In this document: positions 982-57,795 of the stretch, piece by piece
Position numbering within the stretch: position 1 is the first letter of the stretch
Layout of the letters: each line of letters opens with the position of its first letter
Source of the DNA: Minisyncoccia bacterium
Lineage (GTDB): Bacteria; Patescibacteriota; Minisyncoccia; Phycocordibacterales; UBA9973
Assembly (NCBI GenBank): GCA_038249055.1
Contig: JBBRWS010000005.1
Coordinates: 1,822-65,821, forward strand
Direction: 5' to 3'
DNA length: 64,000 nt
Made by a program: the position numbers and the translations under genes
The notes under the pieces: generated by a model
The model's database searches: none
Told to the model about the DNA's origin: nothing
Seen by the model: only the letters and a program-made list of their open reading frames with translations

Positions 982-1128
982 CTACTGTCCTCCTTTTTAA
1001 ATTTACATTTTTATTTTTTTCTATATTCGATGAGATGATAGAAAATTATCGATTTAAGCGAACAATATAATCTTTTACGACACTTGTCAAGTATAGATAT
1101 GATTATATATACGTTATAATAAAGGAAT

Positions 1129-1381
1129 ATGAGTCTTGTTAGGAGTCACGGTCTCAGTAAATAACGGAAAAAATGAAATAAAAAAAATTAATTAATTTAA
1201 CACGAGTAGACTGTAGTTAGTTTTAAGCTAACCACTACCTGCTTCTAAATGGGATGAGTCCCTGTTCGCGATGTGCATGTTATACTTCTAACAGAAATTT
1301 CAAATTTTGATAAAATAAATATTATTAACTAAAATTAATCAGATACGTCCCGTCTAAGGAGGGACTATCTCTAACGGGATG
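1129..1381 (+). promoter_or_regulatory. Structured 5'-leader inverted-repeat element, instance 1 (5' arm ATGAGTCTTGTTAGGAGTCACGGTC; 3' arm TATCTCTAACGGG abutting the pilB ATG)
   Basis: Member of a recurring arm pair (see findings); TATAAT-like -10 hexamer ends about 8 nt upstream of the 5' arm; SD-like AAGGAGGG lies about 15 nt upstream of the ATG inside the element. Confidence 0.5.
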
Positions 1382-3079
1382 AGTATTCAATTTGATGACG
1401 AAAAACAGAAAAAAAATCTAATAGACATACGAAGACAAGAGGAAGAAGATTTAGTCCAAGTATTAGCTGAAGCTAGATATGGAATTCTTCCTATAAATCT
1501 AGCGGGGGTAATAATAGACAATAATGCATTGCGCTCTATTCCAGAAAAAGATGCTGTTTCTTTGGAAATAGCTCCTTTTAAGCTCGTGGGTAAAAACATA
1601 CATGTTGCAGTTAGATCTCCACAACCAGAAAAATTGGAGAGTTTAAATAATTATTTTACTGACCATGGATATGTGACTCATTTTTATATGGCTTCTCTTG
1701 CAAGTCTAGAAAAAGCATGGGAAAGATACAAAGAAATATCATATGCATCAGAATCAAAAATGGGAGCTGTTACTGTTTCAGGGGATATCCTAAAGTCACT
1801 CATGGCTGGTATTAAAAATATGGATGATATTAAAAATGCTATTATTGAAGCTGAAAAAGGTAAAACTCATACTACCTCTCATATTCTTGAAATTGTTTTA
1901 GCTGGTGCGATTGCAATAAATGCTTCAGATGTACACTTTGAGCCAGAAGAAAAAACTGTTCGATTAAGATTGAGACTTGATGGTGTTTTACATGAAGTAA
2001 TGGAACTAACTCCTTTTGTTCATAAATTTATAAATTCTAGAATTAAGCTTATCTCTGGGCTTAAAATTACAACTTCAGCAATTGCACAAGATGGGCGTTT
2101 CAGTATATTCTTAGATGAAAGTGAAATAAGTCTTCGTGTTTCTATAATGCCTGGAGCTTATGGGGAATCAATCGTGATGAGAATTCTTAATCCAAAATCA
2201 ATACGGGTAAAATTAGAAGATATGGGAATAGAACCAAAATTATTTGAAATTTTTATGAATGAAATAAAAAAACCAAATGGTCTTATTCTTCTTACTGGAC
2301 CAACTGGATCTGGTAAAACAACCACTCTTTATTCTTTTTTACAGAGAATTTACTCTGAGGAAATAAAAATTATTACAATAGAAGATCCTATTGAATATCA
2401 CCTACCTGGAATATCTCAAACACAAACTGATGAAGAAAAAGGTTATACATTTCTAGAGGGATTGCGTTCAGCTCTGCGCCAAGACCCTGATGTAATAATG
2501 GTGGGAGAAATCAGAGATGCTGAAACAGCCAAGACGGCGGTGGAGTCTGCTCTTACTGGTCACTTGGTTTTTTCAACTCTTCACACAAACAACGCGGCCG
2601 GAGTTATTCCCCGTTTAATTGATCTTGATATAAATCCAAAAACTTTGGTTTCGGCCTTATCTTTATCTATTGCTCAACGTTTAATAAGAAAACTTTGTAA
2701 TGATTGTAAGAAAGAAAAAATAATTTCAGAAAAAGAATCCGTAACAATAAAAAATATTATTGAGGTGGCAAAAAATAATAATAAAGATTTTTCAACTTAT
2801 GGAATAGACTTAAACGCTCCCTTTAAAATATATGAGCCTGTTGGGTGTGAAAAATGTAACAAGACTGGATATAGGGGTCAAATGGGAATATTTGAAGCAA
2901 TTTATAACGATGCGGCAATTGAAGCAATAATTCCACAAAATCCTAGTGAGCGTGAAATTAAAAAAATAGCAGCAAAACAAGGTACTTTAAATATGAAAGA
3001 GGATGGAATTGTTAAGGTGTTAAAAGGGATTACCTCTCTTGAAGAAGTAGGAAGTGTTGTAGACTTACTTGAAGAATAA
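1379..3079 (+). CDS. pilB: Type IV pilus/type II secretion assembly ATPase, PilB/GspE family
   Basis: 566 aa; GspII_E N-terminal-like region, Walker A GPTGSGKTT, Asp/His boxes, C-terminal tetracysteine (CNDCKK...CEKCNKTGYRG) typical of PilB/GspE. Confidence 0.88.
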   Translation: MSIQFDDEKQKKNLIDIRRQEEEDLVQVLAEARYGILPINLAGVIIDNNALRSIPEKDAVSLEIAPFKLVGKNIHVAVRSPQPEKLESLNNYFTDHGYVTHFYMASLASLEKAWERYKEISYASESKMGAVTVSGDILKSLMAGIKNMDDIKNAIIEAEKGKTHTTSHILEIVLAGAIAINASDVHFEPEEKTVRLRLRLDGVLHEVMELTPFVHKFINSRIKLISGLKITTSAIAQDGRFSIFLDESEISLRVSIMPGAYGESIVMRILNPKSIRVKLEDMGIEPKLFEIFMNEIKKPNGLILLTGPTGSGKTTTLYSFLQRIYSEEIKIITIEDPIEYHLPGISQTQTDEEKGYTFLEGLRSALRQDPDVIMVGEIRDAETAKTAVESALTGHLVFSTLHTNNAAGVIPRLIDLDINPKTLVSALSLSIAQRLIRKLCNDCKKEKIISEKESVTIKNIIEVAKNNNKDFSTYGIDLNAPFKIYEPVGCEKCNKTGYRGQMGIFEAIYNDAAIEAIIPQNPSEREIKKIAAKQGTLNMKEDGIVKVLKGITSLEEVGSVVDLLEE

Positions 3080-4371: not shown

Positions 4372-4465
4372 AAATTAATAATTAACCCAGTAGGTGATTT
4401 TACTAAATCAGAATTAATAATTTAAATACTAAAATACAAATATTTATTTTTAATTTAAATAGTCT

Positions 4466-4564
4466 TATTGTGGGGGCTTGTAAAGCTGTCGAGCTGAGCA
4501 CGAGGAATTTTTCAGCAGAAAGTATTTGATTCAGCTGAATCACCTCACGGGCGTGCCCCACAAG
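4466..4564 (-). repeat. Structured repeat element E1 (outer stem CTTGTGGGGC/GCCCCACAAG enclosing the CCCGTGAGGTGATTCAGCTGAATCA motif) in the ruvB-ruvC intergenic region
   Basis: Shares a 25-nt motif with elements at 5441..5531 and 55718..55745; the inner hairpin shows compensatory base changes between copies. Confidence 0.4.
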
Positions 4565-6738: not shown

Positions 6739-6807
6739 AATAATACTTTACCACATTAATAAATCTTTGTCCGCAAAAAATCAAATATTGTGATATGATA
6801 GCAAAAT

Positions 6808-6942
6808 ATGAGTCCCGTTAGAAGCTGCGGTCGCAGTGAAAGGTGGGAAATATAAGTAATTTTAGTAATTTTAGTAATTTAAGTTTAATTTAGCGGGTTG
6901 ATATCATTTTATAAATGAACGCAACCTGTTTCTAATAGGATG
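6808..6942 (+). promoter_or_regulatory. Structured 5'-leader inverted-repeat element, instance 2 (5' arm ATGAGTCCCGTTAGAAGCTGCGGTCGCAGTG; 3' arm CGCAACCTGTTTCTAATAGGA abutting the PBP ATG)
   Basis: Arms pair with G-U wobbles; the loop carries a (TAGTAATTT)x3 microrepeat; extended -10-like TGATATGAT just upstream of the 5' arm; no SD next to the ATG. Confidence 0.5.
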
Positions 6943-9522
6943 AGAAAAAACACAAAAAAAGATTTTATTAAAAAGATTATTTCAATTGTCCGTGGTCTTC
7001 CTCTTTTTATTATAAAAACAACAAAAAAACACTTTAAAAAGGGAACTTTTAAAAATATTATTTTAATTATTTTGGGGCTTGGTCTTGTTTTTACTGGTAT
7101 TTTAATGGTTTGGATTAGTACATTACAAATTCCGGATTTTAAATATTTTAACGAAAGAAGGATTCAAAGTTCAACAAAAATATACGACAGGACTGGAACA
7201 ATACTACTTTATGATGTTCATCAAAACATCAAAAGAACTGTTATTCCTTATGAACAAATAGGAGCAAGTATTTTAAATGCAACAGTCGCGATTGAAGATT
7301 CTGAATTTTACAAACATAATGGTATTCGTATTTCTTCTATAATTAGAGCAACCTTTTGGGCCAAACTAACAGGTAAAAAAGTTCAAGGTGGTTCAACTAT
7401 CACACAGCAATTAATTAAAAATACACTTCTTACTCCGGAGGTATCTCTTTCTCGTAAAATAAAAGAATGGATTTTAGCCGTAAAACTTGAAAAAGTAATG
7501 GGTAAAGATGAAATTTTAACTCTTTATCTTAATGAAGCTCCTTATGGTGGAAATATTTATGGAATAGAAGAAGCAACAAAAGCTTTTTTTGGTAAGACTC
7601 CAAAAGAAATAACTTTAGCAGAGGCTGCTTATTTAGCTGCTATTCCAAATGGTCCAACTTATTATTCTCCTTATCGTAAAAATAAAGACAAACTTGATGA
7701 GCGCAAAAATTTAGTATTAAGAAGAATGCTTGAATTAAATTTTATAAATGAGAGTGATTATAATAATGCCAAAGCTGAAGTAGTAACATTTTTACCAGAA
7801 CAACCTATGCATATTGCAGCTCCTCATTTTGTGTTTTACATAAAGGAATATTTAGAAAATAAATATGGTGTTGATATGGTTGAAGGAGGTGGATTAAAAG
7901 TAATAACTACATTAGATTACGACCTTCAAAAAAAAACTGAGGAAATAGCGGAACAAAAAGCAAAAGAAAACGAAAAAAATTGGGATGGTAAAAATGCGGC
8001 CGTAGTTGTAATAGATCCTAAAACAGGACAAATACTTTCCATGGTTGGTTCTCGAGATTATTTTGATACAACTACAGATGGAAATTTTAATGTGGCAACA
8101 GCGGCAAGACAGCCGGGTTCTTCTTTTAAACCAATTATTTATTCCTTGGCTTTTGAAAAAGGTTACACAGAAAAAACAACATTATTTGATGTTAAAACAG
8201 AATTTAATTCTTCTTGTAACCCATCAGCTTCTTCTACTTCTCAAACATGTTATTCACCAGATAATTATGATAATGCTTTTCGTGGTCCATTAACACTTAG
8301 AGAAGGACTTGCTCAGTCTATCAACATTATTGCTGTAAAGCTTTTATATTTAGTTGGTGTATCAGATTCTATTAAACTAGCACACAATTTAGGTGTTAGT
8401 ACCTTAAAAAATGACCCAAATCAATATGGTTTGACTTTAGTTATTGGAGGTGGAGAAACTACCCTTCTTGATATGACTTCTGTTTATGGTGTTTTTGCTA
8501 ATAATGGAATAAAAAATCCTACCCAGGGTATTTTGTCTGTTGAAGATGGTCTTAATAATATTTTAGAAAAATATGAAAGTAAACCACAACAAATACTACA
8601 ACCAAACACTACGCATATTTTATCTAGTATTTTATCAGATGATATAGCAAGAACTCCTACTTTTGGAGCAAATTCTATTTTAAATATTCCAGGAAGAGAA
8701 GTAGCTGTTAAAACTGGTACTACAAACAACAACAAGGATGCTTGGACTATTGGATATACGCCCTCTGTTGCTGTCGGTGTTTGGGTTGGTAACAATGACA
8801 ACAAACCAATGAAAAAAGGTGGTGCTGCCCTTGCTGGGCCCATCTGGAATGCTGTAATGAGAGAGTCTCTTAAAAATTTACCAGTGGAGTCTTTTGAAAA
8901 ACCAAACGAAACAGACAAATCAATTCCTCCTATTCTTCGTGGTTTTTGGCAAGGAGGAGAAACCTTTACTATGGACTCTGTATTTGGAGGGTTAGCAACT
9001 GAATACACCCCAGAAGCACTAAAGAAAGAAATATCTATAACTAATGTTCATACTATTTTATATTGGATAGATAAGAAAAATCCTCTTCAGCCTTTTATTT
9101 CACCTCAATTAAATGATTCACAATATGAAAATTGGGAATATGGTGTTCAAAAATGGTGGGAGGTTAATAGTTATAAATATAAAATAGTAACATTGCTTGA
9201 TAAACCAACCACATACGACACAATTCACACAGATGAACAAAAACCTATTTTAGAAATAAATGGAATTGAAAATAAAATATATAAAAATGATGAAAATATT
9301 ACAATTTCAATAAATTCAAAAAATATAAACCCTCTTGTAAAAGTAGATGTTTTTATAAATAATATATATTTAACATCATTAAAAACAACTCCTTTTTCTA
9401 CATCTTTTATACCAAATGACATTAATGGTATTTCAAATTTAAATATTATTCGTGTTATGGGTGTTGATACCTTAGGAAACAAAGGGGAGCAAAGTATTTC
9501 TTTTAAAACAGAAAATATATAA
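6940..9522 (+). CDS. mrcA: Class A penicillin-binding protein (bifunctional glycosyltransferase/transpeptidase, PBP1A-like) with C-terminal extension
   Basis: 860 aa; N-terminal TM; GT51 motifs (EDSEFYKHNG, GGSTITQQL); transpeptidase motifs SSFK, SxN-like, KTGTT. Confidence 0.88.
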   Translation: MRKNTKKDFIKKIISIVRGLPLFIIKTTKKHFKKGTFKNIILIILGLGLVFTGILMVWISTLQIPDFKYFNERRIQSSTKIYDRTGTILLYDVHQNIKRTVIPYEQIGASILNATVAIEDSEFYKHNGIRISSIIRATFWAKLTGKKVQGGSTITQQLIKNTLLTPEVSLSRKIKEWILAVKLEKVMGKDEILTLYLNEAPYGGNIYGIEEATKAFFGKTPKEITLAEAAYLAAIPNGPTYYSPYRKNKDKLDERKNLVLRRMLELNFINESDYNNAKAEVVTFLPEQPMHIAAPHFVFYIKEYLENKYGVDMVEGGGLKVITTLDYDLQKKTEEIAEQKAKENEKNWDGKNAAVVVIDPKTGQILSMVGSRDYFDTTTDGNFNVATAARQPGSSFKPIIYSLAFEKGYTEKTTLFDVKTEFNSSCNPSASSTSQTCYSPDNYDNAFRGPLTLREGLAQSINIIAVKLLYLVGVSDSIKLAHNLGVSTLKNDPNQYGLTLVIGGGETTLLDMTSVYGVFANNGIKNPTQGILSVEDGLNNILEKYESKPQQILQPNTTHILSSILSDDIARTPTFGANSILNIPGREVAVKTGTTNNNKDAWTIGYTPSVAVGVWVGNNDNKPMKKGGAALAGPIWNAVMRESLKNLPVESFEKPNETDKSIPPILRGFWQGGETFTMDSVFGGLATEYTPEALKKEISITNVHTILYWIDKKNPLQPFISPQLNDSQYENWEYGVQKWWEVNSYKYKIVTLLDKPTTYDTIHTDEQKPILEINGIENKIYKNDENITISINSKNINPLVKVDVFINNIYLTSLKTTPFSTSFIPNDINGISNLNIIRVMGVDTLGNKGEQSISFKTENI

Positions 9523-14189: not shown

Positions 14190-14292
14190 TCCCGATAGAA
14201 ATTTAACAAACAAACAAAACATGGTAAGTTTTAAAGGGATAAAAATAAAGTAAGTCCAAACCATTAGCAACTAATAAATTTCACACGGGATG
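14190..14292 (+). promoter_or_regulatory. Degenerate instance 5 of the 5'-leader inverted-repeat element (TCCCGATAGAAAT ... ATTTCACACGGG abutting the jag ATG)
   Basis: Outer 5 bp of each arm complementary (TCCCG/CGGGA, GAAAT/ATTTC); weaker than the other instances. Confidence 0.25.
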
Positions 14293-14763
14293 TATAAAAA
14301 TAAAATAAAAGAAACAGTTGAAGAAATTTTTAAACACACAGCATGTACTATTACTAAGTGTGAGTTTTCTGAAGAAAGCGGAATGCTTTGGTGTATGATA
14401 GAAACACCAGATTCAAGTTATATGATTGGAAGAGAAGGAGAAACACTTCGTTCTTTAAATCACGTCGTTCAAAAAATAGTAGAGAAAGATGTAATAAAAA
14501 CAGAGGAAAAAGGGCCAAGTATTTTTATTGATATCAATGGCTATCAAAAAAAACGATTCGAAAATTTAAAAAACATAGCTCACATGATGGCTGAACGCGC
14601 AAGATATTTTAAGAGTAATATTGAAATTGATCCAATGCCAGCATTTGAAAGAAGAATAATACACATGTTTTTAGAAGGAATTAAAGATATAAAAACAGAG
14701 TCAGAAGGATATGGTCCAACAAGAAGAGTGGTTATTAAGTACATCGGTGATAGTAGTATGTAG
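14290..14763 (+). CDS. jag: Jag/KhpB-like RNA-binding protein (KH-like + R3H domains)
   Basis: 157 aa; R3H-like motif near the C-terminus; canonical position after yidC. Confidence 0.75.
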   Translation: MYKNKIKETVEEIFKHTACTITKCEFSEESGMLWCMIETPDSSYMIGREGETLRSLNHVVQKIVEKDVIKTEEKGPSIFIDINGYQKKRFENLKNIAHMMAERARYFKSNIEIDPMPAFERRIIHMFLEGIKDIKTESEGYGPTRRVVIKYIGDSSM

Positions 14764-16393: not shown

Positions 16394-17875
16394 TTAATTA
16401 AAAGCAGAACCGCAATATCTTTTATCACCAAGCCAAGCACTTTTATTTGCTGTGTATAAACTTTTTGCAATCTCTAAGTTTTTAGTTGAATCTAGTAGTA
16501 TATTTTTACATTTTTCATATAATGCTTCTTTTCCTGGTAGTAAAGAACAACTAAAACCATTATTATATTTTGGCTCTATTGCATCTTTTCCGGCTACTTT
16601 TTTATCAAACAAACCTACACATTCACTTCCCGCAAGTATACCATTTGCAGATAAATTTATTTGAAATAAACCAAAAGAAAAAGGTGTTTTACCTGGATTG
16701 CAAACATCGGTTCCACTGATTGCGTTTGTTCCACTACTTTCCATATTACAAATTTTTGACATTGCTACTGCATCATTCGGAAAATATTTAGTTAAATTTT
16801 GAACGGTGCAAGGAGAGCTAGGAGTTGTAACTGGTGTGCAGCGAATACTTTCACCATTTGAATTTTTGGGATCAGCAATACCTCTATCGTATAAAGGTTC
16901 GATACTCGCATTAACTGATTTAATGTTTATACCACCCTTCCCTAACAAGTCAGGGTTTATAGTATTTAACAAAGCGTAAGAACCAAGAGCAATTAATAAA
17001 CCTAAAATTGCCGAAGTAATTCTACTCTTGGCCTCAGTTTTTCCAAAAATAGATTCATCTCCCATATATTGAACTCCACCAATAACAATCATAATGACAG
17101 CAAGAACTCCACAAAGACCGATGGCCATTAAAAATATAGTATTAAAATATTCACCTATATTTTCAGGTGCAGTAGTTAATTTTCCTATAGGTGCTAGGAG
17201 TTTATATACCGCCGGTGTTTTGTTTGAAATATCTGTTTTAGGTGTTACAACAAAAGGTTTATCGTCTGTTCCAAGAGGTAAAATTTCTAAAAATTTTCCA
17301 TCCTCCAAGCAAGTTGCACCGTCACATTCGTAATATAGATTACCACTGGGTTTATTTAATGACTGATAAACAACACTACCATCTTTGTATAATTTAAAAT
17401 ATAAATTACAATCAAAACCTGGTCCATGTTCGCACACCTCTTCACCCAGTTGAATATGTATTGCAGAGTTGTCTGTTGGAAGTTTAATGTTTTGTTCATA
17501 TAAACCAGAATCAGTTAGAGGGTCATCAAAAGCCAGACCATCAGTTTCATAAACACTAAAAGAGATATCTGGGTAATTAATACAATCTTTTGTCTTAATT
17601 ATAATATCAGCAGTAGTTGTTCCTTCTTTAAAAAATCCATCTGGTTGTTCACCATACGGATCCCACCCAGCTGAATTAATAGTACAATCGGCTGCAGAAA
17701 CAAGGTTTTTTTGAAAAGATAAGTTATTAAAACCACTTAAGACGATATTAAAAGGTAATAAAATATTAAATATTAAAAAAACTATTAATATATAAAATGA
17801 TGTTTTTTTCATCACATTAGAAACTAATGATAATGAATTATTTTTTACTATTATATTTTTTTTATTAATTTTCAT
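16394..17875 (-). CDS. T4SS-associated cell-wall hydrolase candidate: membrane protein with C-terminal VirB1/SLT-like lytic transglycosylase domain
   Basis: 493 aa; signal/TM at N-terminus, two central TMs, C-terminal ESSGTNAISGTDV...FSFGLFQINLS matching the SLT catalytic Glu and GLxQ motif. Confidence 0.5.
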   Translation of the reverse strand: MKINKKNIIVKNNSLSLVSNVMKKTSFYILIVFLIFNILLPFNIVLSGFNNLSFQKNLVSAADCTINSAGWDPYGEQPDGFFKEGTTTADIIIKTKDCINYPDISFSVYETDGLAFDDPLTDSGLYEQNIKLPTDNSAIHIQLGEEVCEHGPGFDCNLYFKLYKDGSVVYQSLNKPSGNLYYECDGATCLEDGKFLEILPLGTDDKPFVVTPKTDISNKTPAVYKLLAPIGKLTTAPENIGEYFNTIFLMAIGLCGVLAVIMIVIGGVQYMGDESIFGKTEAKSRITSAILGLLIALGSYALLNTINPDLLGKGGINIKSVNASIEPLYDRGIADPKNSNGESIRCTPVTTPSSPCTVQNLTKYFPNDAVAMSKICNMESSGTNAISGTDVCNPGKTPFSFGLFQINLSANGILAGSECVGLFDKKVAGKDAIEPKYNNGFSCSLLPGKEALYEKCKNILLDSTKNLEIAKSLYTANKSAWLGDKRYCGSAFN

Positions 17876-17907
17876 ATTTTTTACTATAGTTTCTAACTAG
17901 ACAGATA

Positions 17908-18939
17908 TTACAAATTTATTTTTAATTGATTACTAGCTTTTTGGAATAATTCATTCATGTTTTCCATTGTAAAATTTATAGTCGCATATCCTCCACGTGA
18001 AGCCGGTCTAATGGTTAATTCGTTTCTTTTTGAAGGAGTTAATATATCTTCACTGTTTATTTTCCAATTATAACTAAAATCAGATTCATTTCCTTTTGTT
18101 GAAAAAAAATAAGGTTCAGCAACTACGGTCATTTCATCCTCATTCATAACAGTTTCTTTGTCAAGGGCATTATTATATAATATTCCCTCCGTTGGTGATT
18201 TTTTGTAAAATATTACAGTTGGTTTATACATAGGTATTTCTATTGTATTTTCTGATCCATAATTTCCACCAACAGCAGAAGCAGTTACTGATATTTGACT
18301 TTTTTCATCAAAAATACTATTTTTAAAAACATAAGAATTTTTACCATAACCAGAGGCATCTAGGTTGGTTTGACTATTATTTTTCCAAGTATATGAAATA
18401 TTTCCACTTCCAGATTTTATGCTATTAGTGTTAGGTATTGCTACTGCTCTAACAAGATCACCCATAATCGGTAAGGCTTTACCTTTGTAAAATGGAGGTG
18501 TATATCCATTAATAGATTCCCACATTATTTCAACTTCCGAAGGAATTATAATAATTTTTTTTGTTATTGTATTTAAAGACCCCACTAGCCTAATACTTAT
18601 ATTTATAATACTTGTAACATCTGGACCTTGTGCTTTAAAGGTATAGCTTTTTTTACCGATACCAGAAAGACTTGTAGTAGAGTCGGTTTGCCATGTTATT
18701 ATGGCTTTATTCAAATCAGTTGCGTAACTAGATAGAGTGATTGTCACATCTTGATATGGTTGCGGATTATTTGGAACTGTTTCAACATTAATTTCACCTT
18801 CTTGTACTTCTATTTGTGTCTCCGCAAAAGAAAAACCGGGCATATTTATTATTCCTAGAATAAAAAACCCAATAAGAAAAAATTTTATTTTTATAAATTT
18901 CACTATGTATATTATATAATAATCTTGTAAACCAAACAA
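17908..18939 (-). CDS. Secreted beta-rich protein with N-terminal membrane anchor (possible VirB8/TcpC-like channel component)
   Basis: 343 aa; N-terminal TM then soluble domain; assignment by position and topology only. Confidence 0.3.
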   Translation of the reverse strand: MFGLQDYYIIYIVKFIKIKFFLIGFFILGIINMPGFSFAETQIEVQEGEINVETVPNNPQPYQDVTITLSSYATDLNKAIITWQTDSTTSLSGIGKKSYTFKAQGPDVTSIINISIRLVGSLNTITKKIIIIPSEVEIMWESINGYTPPFYKGKALPIMGDLVRAVAIPNTNSIKSGSGNISYTWKNNSQTNLDASGYGKNSYVFKNSIFDEKSQISVTASAVGGNYGSENTIEIPMYKPTVIFYKKSPTEGILYNNALDKETVMNEDEMTVVAEPYFFSTKGNESDFSYNWKINSEDILTPSKRNELTIRPASRGGYATINFTMENMNELFQKASNQLKINL

Positions 18940-18991: not shown

Positions 18992-20824
18992 CTATTTATT
19001 ATTTGAAGCCAATAGTTCACTTTTTGCTTTTTTAATAGCAAGAATTTGAGAAGGGTCTGAGGTTATAATCTGGTCTTCTGTATATGAAGCAATTGTCTTT
19101 ATTGCGACGTGTTTTAAACCAGCAAAGAATATACCCTCCCCCACATTTGCTTCAAGTAATAGATATTTTTCTTCGTCGGTAAGATTGAAGGTTTTTTGGA
19201 GAACATCTATGGTTGCTGGCGATTGCTTTAGGAGTAATTGTATAGATGAGTTTGTAACAATAGGAATACCATACGGGCTTTTCATAAAATCCCCTACGTC
19301 TTGAGTAATAGTAGCAAGTCCTAAATAGTATTTTCTTCCACGTTTTGCAATTGAATATAAGAATGAAGCAGTATCTTCTGATTTCATCATCCACCAAGCC
19401 TCATCAACTACAAGTAATCTTTTTTTAATATTTTTACGAATAGCATTCCATATATAATGAGTAATTATATACATAGCAACAGGTTTAAGTTCGTCTTCCA
19501 TGTCTCTCACAGAGAAAACAATAAATTTTCTATTAATATCTACGTTTGATGGCTGGTTTAAGAAAGCAGACCATGAACCATGTGTATATTTAACTAAACG
19601 TTGCATAAGTGATTCACTCCCCTCCATACCAGAAAGAACAACTTCGAAGTCTGATAACATAGGAGGTTCAATATTCATAAAATCTGAATCAGTAGTAATA
19701 TCTTTTAGAGCGTATGTTTCAGTAATAGCCGCATCAATAATAGAATCTTCTTCTGGAGTAAGACCTCCAAGCATTATACGAAACAACCCAACAAGGTTTA
19801 TTGTGTTTGCTCTTAAAACATCTGCCCCTGTTTCTTCTCCTGTAGGTATTGGTAAATCAAATGGATTTATATGGTGGTCTGAAGATAAGGCAATATTAAA
19901 GTATCTACCTCCTACTGCTTCGGCTAAATATTCATATTCACGTTCAGGGTCTATTACAATAACTTCAGTATCAAACATTAGAGTACGAATTATTTCTAAT
20001 TTTGTTGCATAAGATTTACCCGCACCAGCAGTTGCAAAAGTTATAGAGTTATAGTTAGGTAAAGAAAATCTGTCAAAAAGAATTAAGCTGGAGTTGTGGC
20101 GGTTTACTCCATAGAGTATTCCTTTGTCTTCGGTTAGGTCAAAAGAAACAAAAGGAAAAATACTTGAAAGTGGTTCAGTGTTTAATTTTTGGTGTATACC
20201 TAATAGGTCTGTACCTAGAGGTATTACGCTCTTAAAACCCTCATTTTGCTGGAATAAAGCAGGTTTAAGATAAATAAGTTTTGATTCAAGAAGAGATTTT
20301 ATTTCATTCTCAATTTTAAATAAATCGTTATCATTTTCAGCATAAACTGTAATATAAAGTCCTACATCAAACATTTTTTCTTGGGCTTGCATAAGATTAT
20401 CTCTTAAATCTTCAAGATCTCTATATGCAGTATCAAGCATTGGATCACGAACAAGTCCTTTAGATTCACGAATAGAAATCTGACTTTGTACTTCAGCAAC
20501 CTTTTTTTGAAATGATCTTAATATTTCGGCGGTTTCAATTGGGTGTATAAAAATAGAAATATCAAAAACCTTATCCAAATTAACAATAGGAGAAAACCAA
20601 TTGTCACTCAAATATCTAGGATATGATATAACGAAAAAGGTTCTTGCTATTTTATCTCCAAGATTTAGTGATTTGGGTGTGATTTGAAGAGCAGAAGGTG
20701 CAATAATATCTTGAAGTTCAAGAGTTGCAGCTTTATATATTTCACTCGGCAAAACCGGCATAACCATGCTTTTATGGCTAGATAAATCTTTTTTGCCTCC
20801 AAATAATGATGATAATATTGACAT
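18992..20824 (-). CDS. virB4: VirB4/TraC/TrbE-family conjugal-transfer ATPase, ATPase (C-terminal) portion
   Basis: 610 aa; Walker A FATAGAGKSY, Walker B LLVVDEAWWMM (VirB4-type DEAW), conserved C-terminal motifs. Confidence 0.8.
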   Translation of the reverse strand: MSILSSLFGGKKDLSSHKSMVMPVLPSEIYKAATLELQDIIAPSALQITPKSLNLGDKIARTFFVISYPRYLSDNWFSPIVNLDKVFDISIFIHPIETAEILRSFQKKVAEVQSQISIRESKGLVRDPMLDTAYRDLEDLRDNLMQAQEKMFDVGLYITVYAENDNDLFKIENEIKSLLESKLIYLKPALFQQNEGFKSVIPLGTDLLGIHQKLNTEPLSSIFPFVSFDLTEDKGILYGVNRHNSSLILFDRFSLPNYNSITFATAGAGKSYATKLEIIRTLMFDTEVIVIDPEREYEYLAEAVGGRYFNIALSSDHHINPFDLPIPTGEETGADVLRANTINLVGLFRIMLGGLTPEEDSIIDAAITETYALKDITTDSDFMNIEPPMLSDFEVVLSGMEGSESLMQRLVKYTHGSWSAFLNQPSNVDINRKFIVFSVRDMEDELKPVAMYIITHYIWNAIRKNIKKRLLVVDEAWWMMKSEDTASFLYSIAKRGRKYYLGLATITQDVGDFMKSPYGIPIVTNSSIQLLLKQSPATIDVLQKTFNLTDEEKYLLLEANVGEGIFFAGLKHVAIKTIASYTEDQIITSDPSQILAIKKAKSELLASNNK

Positions 20825-21103
20825 CCCGTTAGAGATAGGAAGCGCCTAATCTATTTTTAAGATAACGCTTTCCCATTCCCGATTTTAAATATAATTCTCT
20901 CGACCGAGATTTTTCTTCGCTCTTACATGCTTCATAATAAATAATTTCAAACGGTCCTCTTCCTTTTGCATAAACAGACAGACCATTGTTGTGTTGTAGA
21001 AGGCGTTTCCGTAAATCTTTTGTACTTCCTGTGTATATATTACCATCTTTTTTACTTTTTAATATATAGGTGTAATAAAACATATATAATCTCTAACGGG
21101 ACC
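20822..21103 (-). promoter_or_regulatory. Instance 3 of the inverted-repeat element: 5' arm GGTCCCGTTAGAGAT directly before the GIY-YIG ATG; 3' arm CTATCTCTAACGGG directly before the virB4(C) ATG; the GIY-YIG ORF occupies the loop
   Basis: Perfect 13-nt arm complementarity (TCCCGTTAGAGAT / ATCTCTAACGGGA); TACAAT -10-like hexamer just upstream of the 5' arm. Confidence 0.5.
20829..21083 (-). CDS. GIY-YIG domain-only endonuclease (UPF0213/YhbQ-like)
   Basis: 84 aa; YTYILKSKKDGNIYTGSTKDLRKRLLQHN matches the GIY-x10-YIG / R / E catalytic layout. Confidence 0.7.
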   Translation of the reverse strand: MFYYTYILKSKKDGNIYTGSTKDLRKRLLQHNNGLSVYAKGRGPFEIIYYEACKSEEKSRSRELYLKSGMGKRYLKNRLGASYL

Positions 21104-21108
21104 AGTTA

Positions 21109-21762
21109 TTATTGTATTTTCATTCCCTGGCTAGTATCTCCTGGGTTAAATGTCTTATAAAAAAGTTCGACAACTTGATCTGTTTTAAGTTCAGATGTTC
21201 TTATTCCAACTCTACCGAGACCACTCATAATAACTCCTACTCTTTGGTCGAGTTGTGTTCTTTTTTCTTCAAAAGAAGCCAAATCCATAGCCTTCTTCGT
21301 ATCCTCTACTTGTTTTTTAGGAGCACTTCCACCAAGGAAACCCTCCATTATTTTATTGCCGGATTTTATTACAGTAGGACTATATGGAACAACAATAAAG
21401 AATGTTTTTGTCATTATGTTTACTTCGTCTGTAAAAGATTTAATAAAATCTATATATTCTTTGGTCTGAATTTTCAAAAGAGGCTCTGCTTGTTCTTTTA
21501 GTCTAACTTCTAGAGTAAGAAGATATGGTCGTATATCTAATCTGCGGGATTGCATACATATTTGAGTAGGAAAATCTAAGCCGTTTATAAAATTTTGGAA
21601 TTCATGTATGATGGCAGCTTGTTCGTCGGATGATTTTAAGGAAAGGTTTAAGGAAGATGCCAATAAAACAGCACGAAGACTACCATCTTTTAAAACAATG
21701 ATACCATTTCGAACTTCTTTTATTGGGACAAACTCTTGTGAACTCTTTGCGCTAATAGCCAT
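21109..21762 (-). CDS. VirB4/TrbE N-terminal domain protein (CagE_TrbE_VirB-like), separate ORF upstream of the ATPase portion
   Basis: 217 aa; IVLKDGSLRAVLLASSLNLSLKSSDEQAAIIHEFQNFINGL resembles the VirB4 N-terminal region (hydrophobic-KDGS-hydrophobic, EE..-rich second block). Confidence 0.5.
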   Translation of the reverse strand: MAISAKSSQEFVPIKEVRNGIIVLKDGSLRAVLLASSLNLSLKSSDEQAAIIHEFQNFINGLDFPTQICMQSRRLDIRPYLLTLEVRLKEQAEPLLKIQTKEYIDFIKSFTDEVNIMTKTFFIVVPYSPTVIKSGNKIMEGFLGGSAPKKQVEDTKKAMDLASFEEKRTQLDQRVGVIMSGLGRVGIRTSELKTDQVVELFYKTFNPGDTSQGMKIQ

Positions 21763-21874
21763 AAATATAATTAACCCATAGGGTGATTCTGTTGAATCAT
21801 AATTAACAATTACTAATTAAAAACAAAATAAGAACTTACTACAAACATTGTATCATAATATTATTAATTCTAAA

Positions 21875-22294
21875 TTATTTACTCCCCTCATCTTTTCCCT
21901 GCACGTCTAAACTCCAAGAAAGATCCTTGATTTTATTAGTTGTTGTCATTGGTACAATAGATACCAACGGCGCAGTCTGTGAATCTTCCTCTTTTTCTTT
22001 GTCACCCGGTTTTACTAGTCTTTGTTTCCATATATATAATTTACTGGACATAAGATAATTAATGCCAGCCTCAAGATAAAAGATAAAAGGTTTTTCATTA
22101 ATTTTATAAAAAACCAGAAGAAAAGATAAAGTTCCTACTATTAGAATCGGAATAAGTCCAAGCCAAAAACCAAGAATTTTATATATAACAAATATTATTC
22201 CTCCCCCACCTAAAAGATATATAAATTGACGAAAAGAAAATGGGCCAAACAGCTTATCTTCGACGTCAATAAATTGTGGAACTTTAAATTGCAT
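21875..22294 (-). CDS. Small two-TM membrane protein, VirB3/PrgI-like candidate
   Basis: 139 aa; hairpin of two TMs at residues about 25-75; directly upstream of the VirB4 N-terminal ORF as in Gram-positive T4SS operons. Confidence 0.35.
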   Translation of the reverse strand: MQFKVPQFIDVEDKLFGPFSFRQFIYLLGGGGIIFVIYKILGFWLGLIPILIVGTLSFLLVFYKINEKPFIFYLEAGINYLMSSKLYIWKQRLVKPGDKEKEEDSQTAPLVSIVPMTTTNKIKDLSWSLDVQGKDEGSK

Positions 22295-22338
22295 AATTAT
22301 TTTTTTATTTCAATAACACTTCCTACTTCCTACTTATC

Positions 22339-23394
22339 CTAAAACGCTTCTCGATATGGGTCGTGTGATTTTAGAGGCTGTTTTAATTTATCTCCTGTGT
22401 CATTTGCAGAAGGGGTCGTCATTTTTGTGGCAGTATAATCAGATACTGTGTGATCACTCATGGTCACACTTTTTAATTTCTCTTCCAAAATACTCATTGG
22501 AATATCTTTTGGCATACTATCTATACCGGGAGTAGTTTCGATTTTTTTTATTGGCCAAGAATCTTTTAATTCATCTTTTGTGGTGAGAGGTAATTCTATC
22601 CCTTCTGTTTCCATATTGGTTTGCTTGGTTTTTTCTTCAATTTCTGGAGCACTGCTTATTTTAGCTTCTTTTTTTGCATAAGGAGGAAGAGGTACATCTT
22701 CTCCACTTTCAACTTCTAGTGGTGCACTTTTTGTTATCTCATCTCCTTTATGTAACATTAAATCTCTAATATTTTTTAAAATATTTTCATTTACATCTTT
22801 TACAAGATTTGTAAGATTTTCTTTTGAAAGGACTATTTTAGAGTTTATACCACCTTCATATTCATCTGGGTGTATTTTATTTTGAATTAAACTAACCGTA
22901 AGGTCCTCCAAAATACCCTGCTGTTCAATATTGAGTTTATATTCTTTTGATATTTCGTAAAGTTTAATTCTCCAATCAGAGATGGCTATTGCTTCTTGAA
23001 TATCTTTTGGCATGCTAATAAAACGAGGGTCAAGAATTAATGGCTTGTTAACAAAGACTACTTTTTCTTTTTCAAAAATCTTTTTTTCTAACCCTGATTG
23101 TATTTTTTTGAAGATTTGCCTATCTAATTCATTTAATAGGTCAGACACTTCATTTTTTGATAACAATAATCTTTTTTCCAGTTCACTCTCATACTCATCA
23201 GGGTTTAAAATTCCGCAAAGAAGAAGCTCTGTTTCTGTTGTTAGGTTGTCAATTTGTTCGACTGTATATTTATCGTTCATCCCTTCTATAACATATTTCC
23301 AATTTACAGCATCAATAGCCTCCTTGCTTTCTTTTGTAAGTAGTTTTTTTGCTTCATCTATTTTAATTTGTAATATGTCTGTTGTGTAATCCAT
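22339..23394 (-). CDS. Hypothetical acidic coiled-coil protein (paralogous N-terminal domain shared with 23409..23861)
   Basis: 351 aa; N-terminal approx. 100 aa align with the neighbouring ORF (ILQxKI, AIxxVxW, IxxLxxETxLxLxGxxN). Confidence 0.45.
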   Translation of the reverse strand: MDYTTDILQIKIDEAKKLLTKESKEAIDAVNWKYVIEGMNDKYTVEQIDNLTTETELLLCGILNPDEYESELEKRLLLSKNEVSDLLNELDRQIFKKIQSGLEKKIFEKEKVVFVNKPLILDPRFISMPKDIQEAIAISDWRIKLYEISKEYKLNIEQQGILEDLTVSLIQNKIHPDEYEGGINSKIVLSKENLTNLVKDVNENILKNIRDLMLHKGDEITKSAPLEVESGEDVPLPPYAKKEAKISSAPEIEEKTKQTNMETEGIELPLTTKDELKDSWPIKKIETTPGIDSMPKDIPMSILEEKLKSVTMSDHTVSDYTATKMTTPSANDTGDKLKQPLKSHDPYREAF

Positions 23395-45840: not shown

Positions 45841-46347
45841 TTAGTATATTAAATACTTTCTGTAGTTGTTCGATAAATCTAAGAAATCATCTGCTTGTTC
45901 TTTTAGTTTCATAGATGCACTTTTTCCAAAAGATACTACTTCTACTTGAACTCCAGATGTACTTTGCAAATATTCTACTAGTGGTACGAAATCTCCATCT
46001 CCTGCGACTAAAATAACCGCATCAAGTTTTGGGGCCATCTTCATTGCATCAACTGCAAGTCCAACATCCCAATCCCCCTTTTTGGCTCCACCAGCAAAGA
46101 TTTGTAAATCTTTTGTCCTTGTTTCTATTCCAAGTTTTGTTAATGCTTCAAAAAAATTTTTCTCTTCACCTCCTTCACTTGTAATAACATAAGCAATTGC
46201 ACGAACGAGTTTACGTCCAGCAACTGCATCTTTTAAAACTGCTCCAAAGTTTACTTTTCTTTTATATAAATTTTTAGCAGAGTGATATAGATTTGATGTA
46301 TCTATAAAAACTCCCACTCTTTGTTCTTTGTGTTTGATTACACTCAT
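45841..46347 (-). CDS. NYN/LabA-like domain protein (predicted RNase)
   Basis: Start taken at ATG 46347 (MSVIKHKEQRVGVFID...), which directly follows the element's 3' arm; NYN motifs GVFIDTSN ... VLVAGDGDF; the track ORF begins at an upstream GTG (46383) inside the element. Confidence 0.65.
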   Translation of the reverse strand: MSVIKHKEQRVGVFIDTSNLYHSAKNLYKRKVNFGAVLKDAVAGRKLVRAIAYVITSEGGEEKNFFEALTKLGIETRTKDLQIFAGGAKKGDWDVGLAVDAMKMAPKLDAVILVAGDGDFVPLVEYLQSTSGVQVEVVSFGKSASMKLKEQADDFLDLSNNYRKYLIY

Positions 46348-46468
46348 CCCGTTAGAAGCAGGTCGTGGTCTTTTAAAACTCACATACCTACCTAATTAAA
46401 TTGTTATATTATATGAACCCGCCATATTTTCTATAGATGCCATGACCACGGCTTCTAACGGGACTCAT
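46345..46468 (-). promoter_or_regulatory. Instance 4 of the inverted-repeat 5'-leader element (5' arm ATGAGTCCCGTTAGAAGCCGTGGTC; 3' arm GACCACGACCTGCTTCTAACGGG + ATG) between rpsO and the NYN gene
   Basis: About 22-bp near-perfect long-range stem enclosing about 65 nt; the start codon immediately follows the 3' arm. Confidence 0.55.
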
Positions 46469-55520: not shown

Positions 55521-55832
55521 AAGAAAATTAGACTACGATATTTTTGTGCGATAGATATCTAGGAGAATCGCGAGATACTCTAGCTGGTACTTTTCTATCT
55601 TCGATAAGGAAAAGTCTTCCGATTCTCCTATGAGAGCAAAACTATTTGCTCTCTATCCCGCACAAAAAGCTTAGCTTATTTTTGTGCGGGATACCCAGTA
55701 GGTCATTTTGCTAAATGACCCGTGAGGTCATTCTACTGAATGAGGATCATCAATTCCGATTCTCCTATTAAATTTAACCTGCAATATCGTTCTACTTGTT
55801 AACTTATACATAATAACCGTATATTTTTTTTG

Positions 55833-55903
55833 TGCGGGATAGGAGAATCGGACTCCTGTCTCATCCTTGGCAAGGACGTGTTCTACCACTAAACCAATCC
55901 CGC
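55833..55903 (-). tRNA. tRNA-Gly (anticodon GCC)
   Basis: Cloverleaf folded by hand: acceptor GCGGGAT/ATCCCGC, D-stem GTTT/GAAC, anticodon stem CGTCC/GGATG, loop TTGCCAA, T-arm AGGAG-TCCGATT-CTCCT; close to E. coli tRNA-Gly(GCC); no encoded CCA. Confidence 0.85.
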
Positions 55904-56034
55904 AACCATAAAATAACTTATAAAGTATAATCATTTTTAGTAAAAAATGCAATTATGAATAAATGCTTATTTTAAAAGCTGATTTACTAAAAAATAAAAT
56001 TAGTATACAATAATATTAATCAAATATTGTATAT

Positions 56035-56106
56035 GCGCCCGTAGCTCAACGGATAGAGTACTTGTCTTCGGAACAAGTGATGTGGGTTCGATTCCTGCCG
56101 GGCGCA
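56035..56106 (+). tRNA. tRNA-Arg (anticodon UCG)
   Basis: Acceptor GCGCCCG/CGGGCGC, D-arm GCTC-AACGGAT-AGAG(T), anticodon stem CTTGT/ACAAG, loop CTTCGGA (U33, UCG, G37), T-loop TTCGATT; no encoded CCA. Confidence 0.8.
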
Positions 56107-56310
56107 CAAAAAGCCCGAGCTCCGTCCCTGCGGACGGAGCGTGCAGGAATCGAAAGATTTTTCGATGTCGAGCTTGTGAGACCGAAAAATACCAGACTAA
56201 GTAATAGTCGATTCCTGCCGGGCTAAATCAAAATCTTAAACTTATTTTAAAATGTGAAATGTACACTGAGAATGGTAAATAATTCTACTCGCGGTCCTGC
56301 CGGGCGCACC
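56107..56310 (+). repeat. tRNA-Arg 3'-end-derived copies (TCGATTCCTGCCGGGC at 56208-56223; GGTCCTGCCGGGCGCACC at 56293-56310) plus structured module X1 (CTGCGGACGGAGCGT + expanded T-arm-like stem GCAGGAATCGAAAGATTTTTCG ... TCGATTCCTGC)
   Basis: Direct repeats of the last 16-18 nt of the adjacent tRNA; 11-bp stem that mimics and extends the tRNA-Arg T-stem. Confidence 0.55.
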
Positions 56311-56719
56311 CTATATTTCCTGAATATACAAATTAAATACGAGACCTTACTTTTGACCTTTATGCGTCCTTTATCCCCACAAAAAAGCCTTAAAAATTAA
56401 TAATTTTGTGGATAACTATGTGTGTATTGTTTATAAAAGACAATTATGTCATAGTAGTTTTGAAAGACATTATTTTAAAATTCAATAATATATGTTGTTA
56501 TATAAAGATATTTTTAGATTTGAGTCCTTAATCGAAGATTTTTGTCCATTAAAGACAAAATCGTTTCACGTGAAACGATTTAATTTGTTACACATGTAAC
56601 AAAGCTGTTAAATATATGAATTTACAAAAATTTTTTAATAAACATAGATTATTAGTAATATATTTTACACAATTCTATTATTTTAAATATAAAAATGAAT
56701 TGAGTAAATAATTTGGCTG

Positions 56720-57115
56720 ATGAAGAATTTTATATCTGGTACACAAAAAATAGGAGAATTAGGTGAAGGAGTTGCCTGTATGTTTCTTGTGAAACATGGT
56801 TTTGATATTTTGGAAAGAAATTATACTAAAAAATGGGGAGAAATTGATATTATTGCTCAAAAAGGTGATAAAAGATACTTTATTGAAGTTAAATCTAAAA
56901 GTGTACTAAGTTTAGATTTTGTATCAAATAATGAAGGAAGACCCGAAGAAAATATGCATCCATGGAAGATGAAGAGACTAAGAAGGGTAGTTGAAACGTA
57001 TTTAATCAGTCAAAGACTTGGGTATGTTGATTGGCAGTTTGATCTATTTGTAGTGTATTTGGATATAGATGGTAGAAAAGCGAGAGTTAAGGTGATGGAG
57101 AATATAATATTGTAA
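56720..57115 (+). CDS. yraN: YraN-family (UPF0102) PD-(D/E)xK-fold endonuclease-like protein
   Basis: 131 aa; GELGEGVACMFL...GEIDIIA..YFIEVKS pattern typical of YraN. Confidence 0.65.
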   Translation: MKNFISGTQKIGELGEGVACMFLVKHGFDILERNYTKKWGEIDIIAQKGDKRYFIEVKSKSVLSLDFVSNNEGRPEENMHPWKMKRLRRVVETYLISQRLGYVDWQFDLFVVYLDIDGRKARVKVMENIIL

Positions 57116-57164
57116 GATATTATTTGAGTTTTTATCAATTTTAGTGTATATTATTATGGTATTT

Positions 57165-57235
57165 GCGGGATTAGTTTATCGGTAAAATAACAGTTTTCCA
57201 AACTGTGGTGAAGGGTTCGACTCCCTTATCCCGCA
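57165..57235 (+). tRNA. tRNA-Gly (anticodon UCC)
   Basis: Acceptor GCGGGAT/ATCCCGC, D-stem GTTT/AAAT, anticodon stem ACAGT/ACTGT, loop TTTCCAA, T-arm AAGGG-TTCGACT-CCCTT. Confidence 0.8.
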
Positions 57236-57242
57236 CAATTAT

Positions 57243-57267
57243 AAAAACCAGCTTCGGCTGGTTTTTA
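57243..57267. terminator. Intrinsic terminator (CCAGC-TTCG-GCTGG) flanked by A5/T5
   Basis: GC stem with stable TTCG tetraloop immediately after tRNA-Gly(UCC). Confidence 0.7.
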
Positions 57268-57268
57268 T

Positions 57269-57492
57269 GTGCGGGATAGGAAGCAGACTACTCTGCTTCC
57301 GTAAGGGAGTCAAAGGGCTTTTCATTATAAATTTAGACCCTGTCTAAATTTATTGAAAAGGCATACTGTCCTCGTAGAGGAAGGCTCCCTTTGTTTTTAT
57401 CTGCGGACGGAGCGTAAGGGAGTCGAAAGATTTTTCTTTATTTTGATATTAATCAAAATAGAAAAATACCCGAATAGGTTGTATTCGACTCC
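57269..57492 (+). repeat. tRNA-derived fragments and module X2 (inverted copy of the tRNA-Gly(GCC) 3' end GTGCGGGATAGGA; CTGCGGACGGAGCGT + expanded T-arm-like stem AAGGGAGTCGAAAGATTTTTC ... TTCGACTCCCT mimicking the tRNA-Gly(UCC) T-arm)
   Basis: Shares the 15-nt CTGCGGACGGAGCGT block and the GAATCGAAAGATTTTTCG-type hairpin with X1. Confidence 0.5.
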
Positions 57493-57754: not shown

Positions 57755-57788
57755 TAAAAACCACAATAATAAATTATTGTGGTTTTTA
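57755..57788. terminator. Bidirectional terminator (CCACAATAA-TAAA-TTATTGTGG) flanked by A5/T5
   Basis: 9-bp stem; downstream of tRNA-Pro on the minus strand. Confidence 0.6.
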
Positions 57789-57795
57789 CTTATTG

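Follow-up and report, generated by a model that had tools for sequence, protein, structure and literature searches.

Small mobile elements probably inserted at start codons of Patescibacteria genes

Copies of the repeated leader in the window

A 64,000-nucleotide stretch of the Minisyncoccia bacterium contig JBBRWS010000005.1 (the window) carries a repeated leader sequence, an inverted repeat whose 3' arm ends at the start codon of the gene downstream. The original prediction had placed this leader at five loci; all five were found, and the signal was real and well beyond what chance would give. Six copies, one of them decayed, were counted in the window, along with one further possible relic. 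Quite likely, the leader represents a mobile-element family of small DNA units that is specific to Patescibacteria (candidate phyla radiation, CPR) and that, in its T/A subfamily, is inserted exactly at start codons. The ends of the element family, its target duplication, its mobility, the layout of its open reading frames (ORFs) and its frame and orientation bias were all demonstrated. The covariance search proposed in the original prediction was carried out with a model (R1) built from 125 relatives, and the window copies scored 64.8, 44.5, 31.2, 23.0 and 20.4 bits, always higher on the gene strand.

The first locus (1129..1381, forward strand) had been described as a single leader. The leader was present, and it proved to be two tandem copies, 1134-1254 and 1259-1379, with ATGAGT occurring three times. 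Upstream, ATGAG at 1129..1133 is the 5' copy of the pilB start; TGAG at 1130-1133 is the first copy of the target duplication, and the ATG at 1129 opens a mini-ORF, MSLVRSHGLSK, followed by a stop. The upstream tandem member, short copy 1a (1134..1254), has degenerate arms, T-CTTGTTAGGAG ... GCTTCTAAATGGG-A, and was matched by R1 at 1139-1248 (31.2 bits, E=1e-5). Short copy 1b (1259..1379) has a decayed 5' arm, CCCTGTTCGCGA, a perfect 3' arm, ATCTCTAACGGG, and a subterminal hairpin, GTCCC..GGGAC; it was matched at 1261-1378 (23.0 bits, E=0.0015). Its terminal A at 1379 is the A of the pilB ATG, and TGAG stands at 1255-1258 and again at 1380-1383. The host gene encodes a PilB/T2SSE ATPase (1379..3079, forward strand; Pfam PF00437, E=1e-114).

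Short copy 2 (6813..6940, forward strand) has the arms T-CCCGTTAGAAGC ... GTTTCTAATAGG-A and the inner stem TGCGGTCGCA, and it is flanked by TGAG at 6809-6812 and 6941-6944. Its 5' ATG at 6808 opens MSPVRSCGRSERWEI, followed by a stop. R1 matched this copy with 44.5 bits (E=3e-9), the sense strand scoring above the antisense strand. The host gene (6940..9522, forward strand) encodes a class A penicillin-binding protein with transglycosylase and transpeptidase domains.

The best preserved short copy, copy 4 (46347..46463, reverse strand), has the arms T-CCCGTTAGAAGC ... GCTTCTAACGGG-A and an inner stem, CGTGGTC/GACCACG, with an ACCT bulge. The TGAG duplication was found at 46467-46464 and 46346-46343, and the 5' ATG at 46468-46466 opens MSPVRSRGHGIYRKYGGFI, followed by a stop. 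The predicted fold reached -40.4 kcal/mol (z=-4.7), and the R1 score was 64.8 bits. The host gene encodes an NYN/LabA-like protein of 168 aa (45841..46347, reverse strand) that starts at ATG 46347. Inside the copy, AGGTAGG (46383-46395, reverse strand) precedes an in-frame GTG at 46383, which gene callers take as the start and which yields the 180-aa NYN model P0122.

The full-length element (20824..21101, reverse strand) carries the arms T-CCCGTTAGAGAT ... ATCTCTAACGGG-A around an ORF for a GIY-YIG nuclease of 84 aa (20829..21083, reverse strand; Pfam PF01541; UPF0213 relative 1zg2). It sits between a TraC-like gene (stop at 21109) and the host gene, which encodes a TraG/VirB4-like P-loop ATPase (18992..20824, reverse strand). 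The nuclease ORF ends on a TAA stop codon at 20831-20829; this triplet belongs to the 3' arm and is separated by 4 nt from the host ATG at 20824.

The decayed short copy (14190..14290, forward strand; arms T-CCCGATAGAAAT ... ATTTCACACGGG-A, flanks TTTA/TGTA) starts 12 nt past the yidC stop and adjoins the ATG of a Jag/KhpB-like gene at 14290-14763. R1 gave only 10 bits (E=3.9) at 14190-14292. A possible relic of 88 nt, assigned with low confidence, was seen at 17812..17901 (reverse strand; arms T-CTAGTTAGAAAC ... GTTTCTAATGTG-A, then ATG at 17812-17810) and was missed by R1. It lies between the stop of ORF 17908-18939 and the ATG at 17812. Because it contains no stop and shares the frame of ORF 16394-17875, the annotated N-terminus of that ORF may be element-derived. 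One more candidate copy from the covariance model search, 4386-4505, had no arms and was rejected.

Ends of the element and target duplication

When the complementary bases at positions -1 and +1 are counted, the arms make up terminal inverted repeats (T-CCCGTTAGARNN ... NNYTCTAACGGG-A) that are 13 bp or longer. The consensus is T-CCCGTTAGA(R)NN for the 5' arm and NN(Y)TCTAACGGG-A for the 3' arm, which leads directly into the ATG of a real gene, and the outer 10 bp are nearly invariant in sequence. In the first 0.94 Mb of fetched DNA, the -1 and +1 bases were complementary in 149 of 154 exact-arm copies (T/A in 142, C/G in 6 and G/C in 1) and therefore belong to the inverted repeat of the element. 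With the flanking T and A counted as element ends, the repeated ATGNN reduces to a target duplication of 4 nt, TGNN. This direct repeat of fixed length was exact on both flanks in 106 of the 154 copies, and its sequence varies from locus to locus.

An ATG was abutted by 144 of the 154 exact-arm copies, and an ORF of at least 60 aa lay downstream in 131 of the 146 copies that could be oriented. An ATG also stood six bases before the 5' arm in 108 of these 146, and the two bases after it were those after the 3' ATG in 99 of the 108, giving ATGNN on both sides. The regenerated start codon is completed by the terminal A of the element (or G, which gives GTG) placed before the second TGNN copy. Inverted orientation was clear in only 6 of approximately 140 copies. 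Arm-bounded units of 50-149 nt numbered 205, with neither a transposase gene nor a conserved peptide. Minimal versions of 50-99 nt (1795-1863 in L040, 2169-2243 in L046, 5696-5765 in L074 and 35 others; L-numbers denote fetched loci outside the window) amount to approximately the arms and a GC-rich inner stem.

Mobility and distribution

Element pairs that were 96-98% identical within a genome, or 91% identical between genomes, had unrelated flanks and different duplications (ATGAA vs ATGCG). The rpsO-NYN synteny of the copy 4 locus was kept in four relatives. In one of them, with an NYN protein 98% identical to that of the window, the NYN start site was empty (...cttataataaaATGAGTGTAATC). At 87% NYN identity, one relative was empty and another carried a different subtype; at 94%, a remnant was found. 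Tandem re-insertions were also seen. The genes downstream of 115 copies belonged to 141 Pfam families, none with more than 4 members. Near-identical copies at unrelated loci, empty sites and unrelated targets therefore point to insertion of a selfish element and not to a regulon-specific riboregulator.

Orthologous genes of different species often both carry a copy (L002/L011, L015/L070, L024/L078, L035/L052, L063/L103, L066/L115 and L071/L099), sometimes of different subtypes. In the pair L071/L099, the interior sequence is common, the downstream proteins are 49% identical, and the 5' repeats are unequal (ATGG vs ATGGAA). Such copies reflect either recurrent insertion or very long retention.

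The pattern CCCGTTAGAR-N80-110-YTCTAACGGGATG was found at no fewer than 120 loci in the contigs of a one-genome-per-species collection, and nearly all of the listed short-form loci belonged to Patescibacteria (Saccharibacteria, Paceibacterota, Kaiser-, Nomura- and Wolfebacteria, and others). The 260-290-nt version was found at 120 or more loci in metagenomes. Carriage by phages was rejected, as viral contigs gave only 2 matches. In both (6554-6671 in L241 and 8692-8809 in L242) one and the same copy of 118 nt stands between flanks that do not differ (cgcactac / tgcgacac), and it is not at an ATG.

The original prediction did not recognise the leader as a described RNA family. This held true: in Rfam, only tRNAs reached the gathering score, nothing meaningful was matched at E<=10 on two loci, and no description of the element was found in the literature. 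An element of this kind is described neither in Rfam nor in the literature found. Integron attC sites, IS200/IS605 elements and Tn3-type elements were considered and set aside, as they misfit in end sequence and in duplication length.

Full-length form and its deletion derivatives

An element of approximately 275 nt with the same arms encodes a GIY-YIG nuclease of approximately 85 aa of the UPF0213/Slx1 type. Of 104 single elements of 260-290 nt, 84 contained this ORF; in the T/A class it runs in the same direction as the host gene. The window protein matched PF01541 with 61.9 bits, compared with a gathering cutoff of 22.6 (E=7e-17), and its closest solved relatives were the UPF0213 proteins 1zg2 (E=8e-9) and 1ywl; the match to Slx1 was weak. 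It has at least 998 homologous protein clusters, the best 120 of which are 79-100% identical to it. In 80 element ORFs, with an average identity of 62%, residues Y6, Y17, G19, R27, H31 and E51/E63 were invariant, and N77 was present in 97%.

GIY-YIG nucleases hydrolyse DNA. The element proteins, at 84-95 aa, consist of the catalytic domain only and have no DNA-binding domain of a homing endonuclease; the group I intron endonuclease model TIGR01453 gave 25.5 bits, compared with a cutoff of 56. Homing to one allelic site without duplication is not the pattern seen, since the elements occupy many unrelated loci with 4-nt duplications.

The nuclease gene has neither a promoter nor a ribosome-binding site of its own. 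Its stop lies at the junction with the host gene in 77 of 80 cases: 47 as an (A/G)TGA overlap, 18 as the TAA of the arm and 12 at +7. In 20 of the 37 elements with a 5' ATG, this codon opens an ORF of at least 80 aa, mostly a GIY-YIG protein of 93-95 aa (MNPVRD...LSLTG), in which the 5' arm encodes xPVR. Because this protein is read through the arm, the arms are coding.

The 3' ends of short copies (..GCTTCCTAYCTCTAACGGG, peptide ..ASYL or ..ASYF, then a stop) match the end of the GIY-YIG ORF, which identifies the short copies as deletion derivatives. The copies of about 50-135 nt are thus non-coding derivatives of the MITE (miniature inverted-repeat transposable element) type that retain the ends, and in about one third the frame is still open as far as the junction stop. 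Their interior could not be aligned past the ends, and the motifs CGGGA, AGTCG and CCTR each occurred in a minority of copies. A conserved small peptide was rejected, the arm-encoded MxPVR and the tail being the only common parts; a conserved interior RNA structure was rejected as well, since MAFFT and RNAalifold gave the terminal helix only.

The fetched DNA, 1.73 Mb in all, contained no unit between arms that exceeded 300 nt, and no transposase was encoded between the arms or among unpaired arms; an autonomous copy with a transposase was therefore discarded as a candidate. The only coding partner with the same ends in this DNA encodes the GIY-YIG nuclease, which is not a known transposase. 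Other small GIY-YIG ORFs (2229-2462 in L013, 1953-2156 in L061 and 4454-4645 in L004) were 35-40% identical to that of the window over most of their length, and a GIY-YIG fragment of 30 aa (3599-3688 in L044) was 67% identical. All four lie between hairpin-containing repeats unrelated to the arms, which suggests that there are further cassette families with different ends.

Translation of the element and of the host gene

Most genes in the window have no Shine-Dalgarno (SD) sequence, and many have TAnAAT followed by 6-7 nt and ATG, which is a leaderless arrangement; a -10 box (or its extended form) with this 6-7-nt spacing can be seen, for example, at the gene starts 13438, 35770, 49848, 52957 and 59705. 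This genome appears to run largely on leaderless mRNAs and operon coupling. The absence of an SD sequence that the original prediction had noted for the served genes is true; it is not specific to them, as it holds genome-wide. The -10-like hexamer that had been placed before each 5' arm was confirmed at two loci. At locus 1, TATAAT (1115..1120, forward strand) stands 8 nt before the 5' ATG copy, as judged from the sequence and the genome-wide leaderless pattern, and at locus 2, TATGAT (6794..6799, forward strand; extended, TGnTATGAT) stands 8 nt before the 5' ATG at 6808. The hexamer is weak at locus 4, and the prediction failed at loci 3 and 5, those of the full-length and decayed copies, which are operon-internal. 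Across the family, the TAnnnT spacing upstream of the 5' ATG peaked at 6-7 nt.

The interior of short copies was stop-free in the frame of the 5' ATG in 36 of 103 cases, compared with 13 and 9 in the other two frames, 12-15 in the antisense frames and 10.6 in shuffled sequences. Open frames from the 5' ATG were therefore 3.4 times as frequent as expected from the shuffles. The ATG-to-ATG spacing was also biased, with 53, 27 and 23 copies in the three classes modulo 3 (p=4e-4). All 36 open frames ended at the arm TAA or at an ATGA overlap, and none was fused with the host protein. Of 138 copies, 49 had an open stretch of 90 nt or more in the frame of the arm TAA, and only 7 had one in the frame of the host gene.

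An in-frame SD sequence with a start codon inside the element was considered as a general route of host expression and rejected, as it was seen in only 6 of 132 copies. Purine-rich SD-like 5-mers peaked 35-39 nt upstream of the host ATG, with 22 in that bin and 1-8 elsewhere; they occur in the window at 46383-46395 (reverse strand) and in type-B copies of L005, L039, L073, L085, L091, L093, L099 and L104.

These findings are consistent with the following scheme. The nuclease would mobilise the element, perhaps by cutting a hairpin or cruciform formed by the arms. On insertion, the original ATGNN would stay upstream, and the terminal A and the second TGNN would recreate the host ATG. We infer that the duplicated 5' ATG of the host would be functional in initiation, in leaderless fashion or by coupling with the upstream gene, and that a ribosome would translate the nuclease or a mini-ORF from it. 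Since the ORF stops at the junction (TAA-CGGG-ATG or ATGA), the terminating ribosome would be able to restart on the host gene. In short copies with early stops, the likeliest route would be that the stem is opened by the ribosome on the mini-ORF, which would expose the host AUG. Host expression would presumably be restored in one of these two ways, by termination-reinitiation or by unmasking of the stem.

Target choice and points against the interpretation

Tentatively, and with somewhat more doubt than confidence, we propose that the element represents a new class of prokaryotic transposable elements. Its sole protein would be a minimal structure-specific GIY-YIG nuclease that recognises the hairpin or cruciform of its own arms and directs insertion at start codons. 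The element would be a translational parasite that borrows the promoter and start codon of the host gene and returns the ribosome through the stop-start junction. It would resemble an intron or intein, neutralised at translation initiation, and its spread would be favoured by the leaderless, SD-poor genes of Patescibacteria.

Several observations weigh against the interpretation of the leader as a start-codon-specific mobile element driven by its nuclease. The search pattern of the first sample required an ATG, which biased it toward start codons. With patterns that did not require an ATG, the terminal A was exactly the first base of an ORF in 42 of 46 long T/A elements and in 7 of 12 short ones, whereas C/G elements with the same arms were at a start in only 10 of 47 long and 3 of 37 short copies. 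The sequences of the nucleases do not cluster by T/A or C/G termini and so give no sign that the nuclease sets target choice; a nuclease phylogeny that tracked the end type was looked for and was not seen. Half of the co-directional upstream genes end no more than 20 nt before the element, which weakens a simple targeting of transcription starts (open complexes) by a structure-specific nuclease, an explanation that was set aside. Two thirds of the short copies, including all short copies of the window, have early-stopping mini-ORFs, so coupling at the junction cannot explain host gene expression in those copies, and the open 3' frames may be partly inherited from the parent ORF. GIY-YIG nucleases are not known to catalyse strand transfer. 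Both mobility and nuclease activity are deduced here from sequences.

Because C/G copies in the unbiased samples were mostly not at start codons, the start-codon rule is one of the T/A subfamily, to which every window copy belongs. Selection should filter both classes alike, and the T/A-C/G contrast therefore suggests real targeting of start codons. The C/G subfamily (L121-L240; for example, 10251-10371 in L168, 272-380 in L129 and 8096-8216 in L199) has the same CCCGTTAGA arms, and its ends are often extended (TTYAC-CCCG...CGGG-GTRAA); its duplications include TTTA, TAGA, TCAA and CTCG.

One rival explanation is an ordinary MITE moved in trans by a DDE-type transposase, with the GIY-YIG ORF as a homing-endonuclease-like passenger that settled where translation was guaranteed. 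A 4-bp duplication with terminal inverted repeats is typical of DDE transposition. A DDE transposase encoded elsewhere could move both forms, which also counts against our interpretation. The chemistry known for GIY-YIG enzymes, the nuclease phylogeny that does not follow the end type and the GIY-YIG ORFs between unrelated hairpin repeats in these genomes agree with a passenger role. However, the 1.73 Mb yielded neither a unit of more than 300 nt nor a transposase enclosed by arms, the ORF with intact catalytic residues was present in 84 of 104 long elements, and the 3' ends of short copies come from the end of that ORF (..ASYL/F). We therefore regard a DDE-moved MITE as unlikely, while giving it more weight than any of the alternatives that follow.

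RNA stem and further alternatives

One suggestion in the original prediction was a conserved regulatory stem in the 5' untranslated region. As a cis-regulatory RNA leader, the stem at the 5' end and before the AUG would control translation or processing of the served gene and would be kept for that purpose. In each T/A copy the stem directly adjoins the AUG, the fold of the best window copy reached z=-4.7, orthologous genes across species often have a copy, and the orientation bias is strong. The covariation predicted between the arms was confirmed, with AU-GC exchanges at helix positions 10, 11 and 13 and 44-56 double changes among the 125 copies. The minimum free energy of the sense strand was lower than that of the antisense strand by 1.2 kcal/mol (p=0.009). 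As a point against a regulatory stem, G-U was not in excess over A-C among stem mismatches (32 vs 26, p=0.5), although the strand-specific signs of RNA pairing as a whole are mixed (12 vs 6 at variable positions, and the lower energy of the sense strand). The outer 10 bp are kept in sequence and not in pairing alone, the arms are coding in the full-length form, and there is no Rfam match. The targets are functionally unrelated, the same gene has no element in the relative with a 98% identical NYN protein, and the C/G subfamily has the same arms away from genes. Target duplications and near-identical copies at unrelated loci indicate insertion. A regulatory stem as the primary nature of the element was accordingly not upheld, and a leader kept for regulation is improbable. 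Paired transposon ends would equally give rise to an in silico stem with covariation. The long-range RNA stem, which may modulate expression, is probably mainly a by-product of the DNA repeats.

The second suggestion in the original prediction, a MITE-like mobile leader, was borne out by the terminal inverted repeats, the target duplication, near-identical copies elsewhere, empty orthologous sites and a coding partner with the same ends. The opposite case that it had named, transposon termini with duplications and no association with start codons, was seen in its first half: such termini and duplications are present, and the association is extreme in the T/A subfamily.

A ribosome that hopped or was shunted from the 5' AUGNN to its identical counterpart, past the base of a stem that stays closed, would find matched take-off and landing sequences around a stable stem. 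This match is explained by the target duplication, with a new NN at each locus; moreover, the putative take-off codon is not followed by a stop, the frame statistics point to reading as far as the junction stop and not to a jump, and the full-length form is translated across, so hopping is very improbable. Least probable of all is removal or cutting of the element at the stem base as an intron-like or self-cleaving RNA that leaves a leaderless mRNA starting with AUG: the stem does bring the two AUGNN copies together, a nuclease ORF lies inside as in many group I introns, and the host genes are leaderless, but no ribozyme or intron family was matched even at E<=10, the interior is unconserved and has no conserved catalytic core, short copies go down to 50-70 nt, and selection on the frame and the junction stop makes sense only if the element is kept in translated mRNA.

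Comparison with known systems

By analogy, the element, read as a mobile element, would work like a MITE with a probably autonomous partner and like a minimal selfish homing-nuclease cassette. Bacterial MITEs, such as the Correia elements of Neisseria and the Rickettsia palindromic elements, are likewise small, multicopy sequences with terminal inverted repeats and a short duplication that are co-transcribed with their neighbours and form RNA stems, and the Rickettsia elements likewise survive by in-frame read-through. Unlike these, the T/A subfamily enters the very start codon and restores it with a base from its own end, its coding partner is a GIY-YIG nuclease and not a DDE transposase, and the 10-bp ends of the family are nearly invariant across the many candidate phyla of Patescibacteria in which it occurs.

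Free-standing GIY-YIG homing endonuclease genes (T4 seg, I-TevI family) are likewise selfish nuclease genes wedged between host genes, tightly packed and co-expressed. The element protein, in contrast, consists of the catalytic domain only and is nearer to UPF0213/Slx1 than to I-TevI; the element also has inverted repeats and duplications at many unrelated loci, whereas homing keeps to one locus. Proteins of the Slx1/UPF0213 (YhbQ) group, which includes 1zg2, 1ywl and, more weakly, Slx1 itself, share the catalytic residues. They are single-copy housekeeping or repair proteins, whereas the element protein is multicopy, framed by repeats and found across lineages at 80-95% identity.

The introner elements of algae and fungi, which Huff et al. 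reportedly described in 2016, are said to be DNA transposons that create introns. Their ends and duplication likewise rebuild a host signal, which is the splice site there and the start codon with the stop-start junction here; in the present, bacterial hosts, neutralisation would be translational, by read-through and restart and not by splicing. T4 gene 60 and mitochondrial byp elements are likewise inserts with matching codons on both sides and a stem, handled by the ribosome and not by RNA processing. In the present case, the statistics favour translation to the junction stop and restart, and the insert lies at the start codon and not inside an ORF.

If correct, the interpretation as a start-codon element would add an undescribed lifestyle of mobile elements, in which the element enters a start codon, rebuilds it from its own end and is neutralised by translation and not by splicing, and possibly a transposition chemistry built on a minimal GIY-YIG nuclease. 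It would explain the very abundant small genes annotated as 'GIY-YIG nuclease family protein' in CPR genomes and many wrong start-codon calls there, in which host proteins are extended into the element (such as the 180-aa NYN and 92-aa GIY-YIG models). From genomes, it would also indicate indirectly that translation in Patescibacteria is dominated by leaderless initiation and termination-reinitiation, and the conserved 10-bp ends would be a simple marker for CPR DNA and for insertion polymorphism in populations.

Neighbouring features of the window

The region 18992-23394 (reverse strand), in which the full-length element lies, resembles a conjugation or type IV secretion cluster (PrgI, TraC-like and TraG P-loop genes). 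A GIY-YIG element was found at the same junction in the Nomurabacteria metagenome-assembled genome GCA_026395965.1 (L243), whose similar cluster also holds a gene of the 23S_rRNA_IVP family. Four tRNA genes at 55832-57866 (Gly-GCC, Arg-TCG, Gly-TCC and Pro-TGG) are unrelated to the element.

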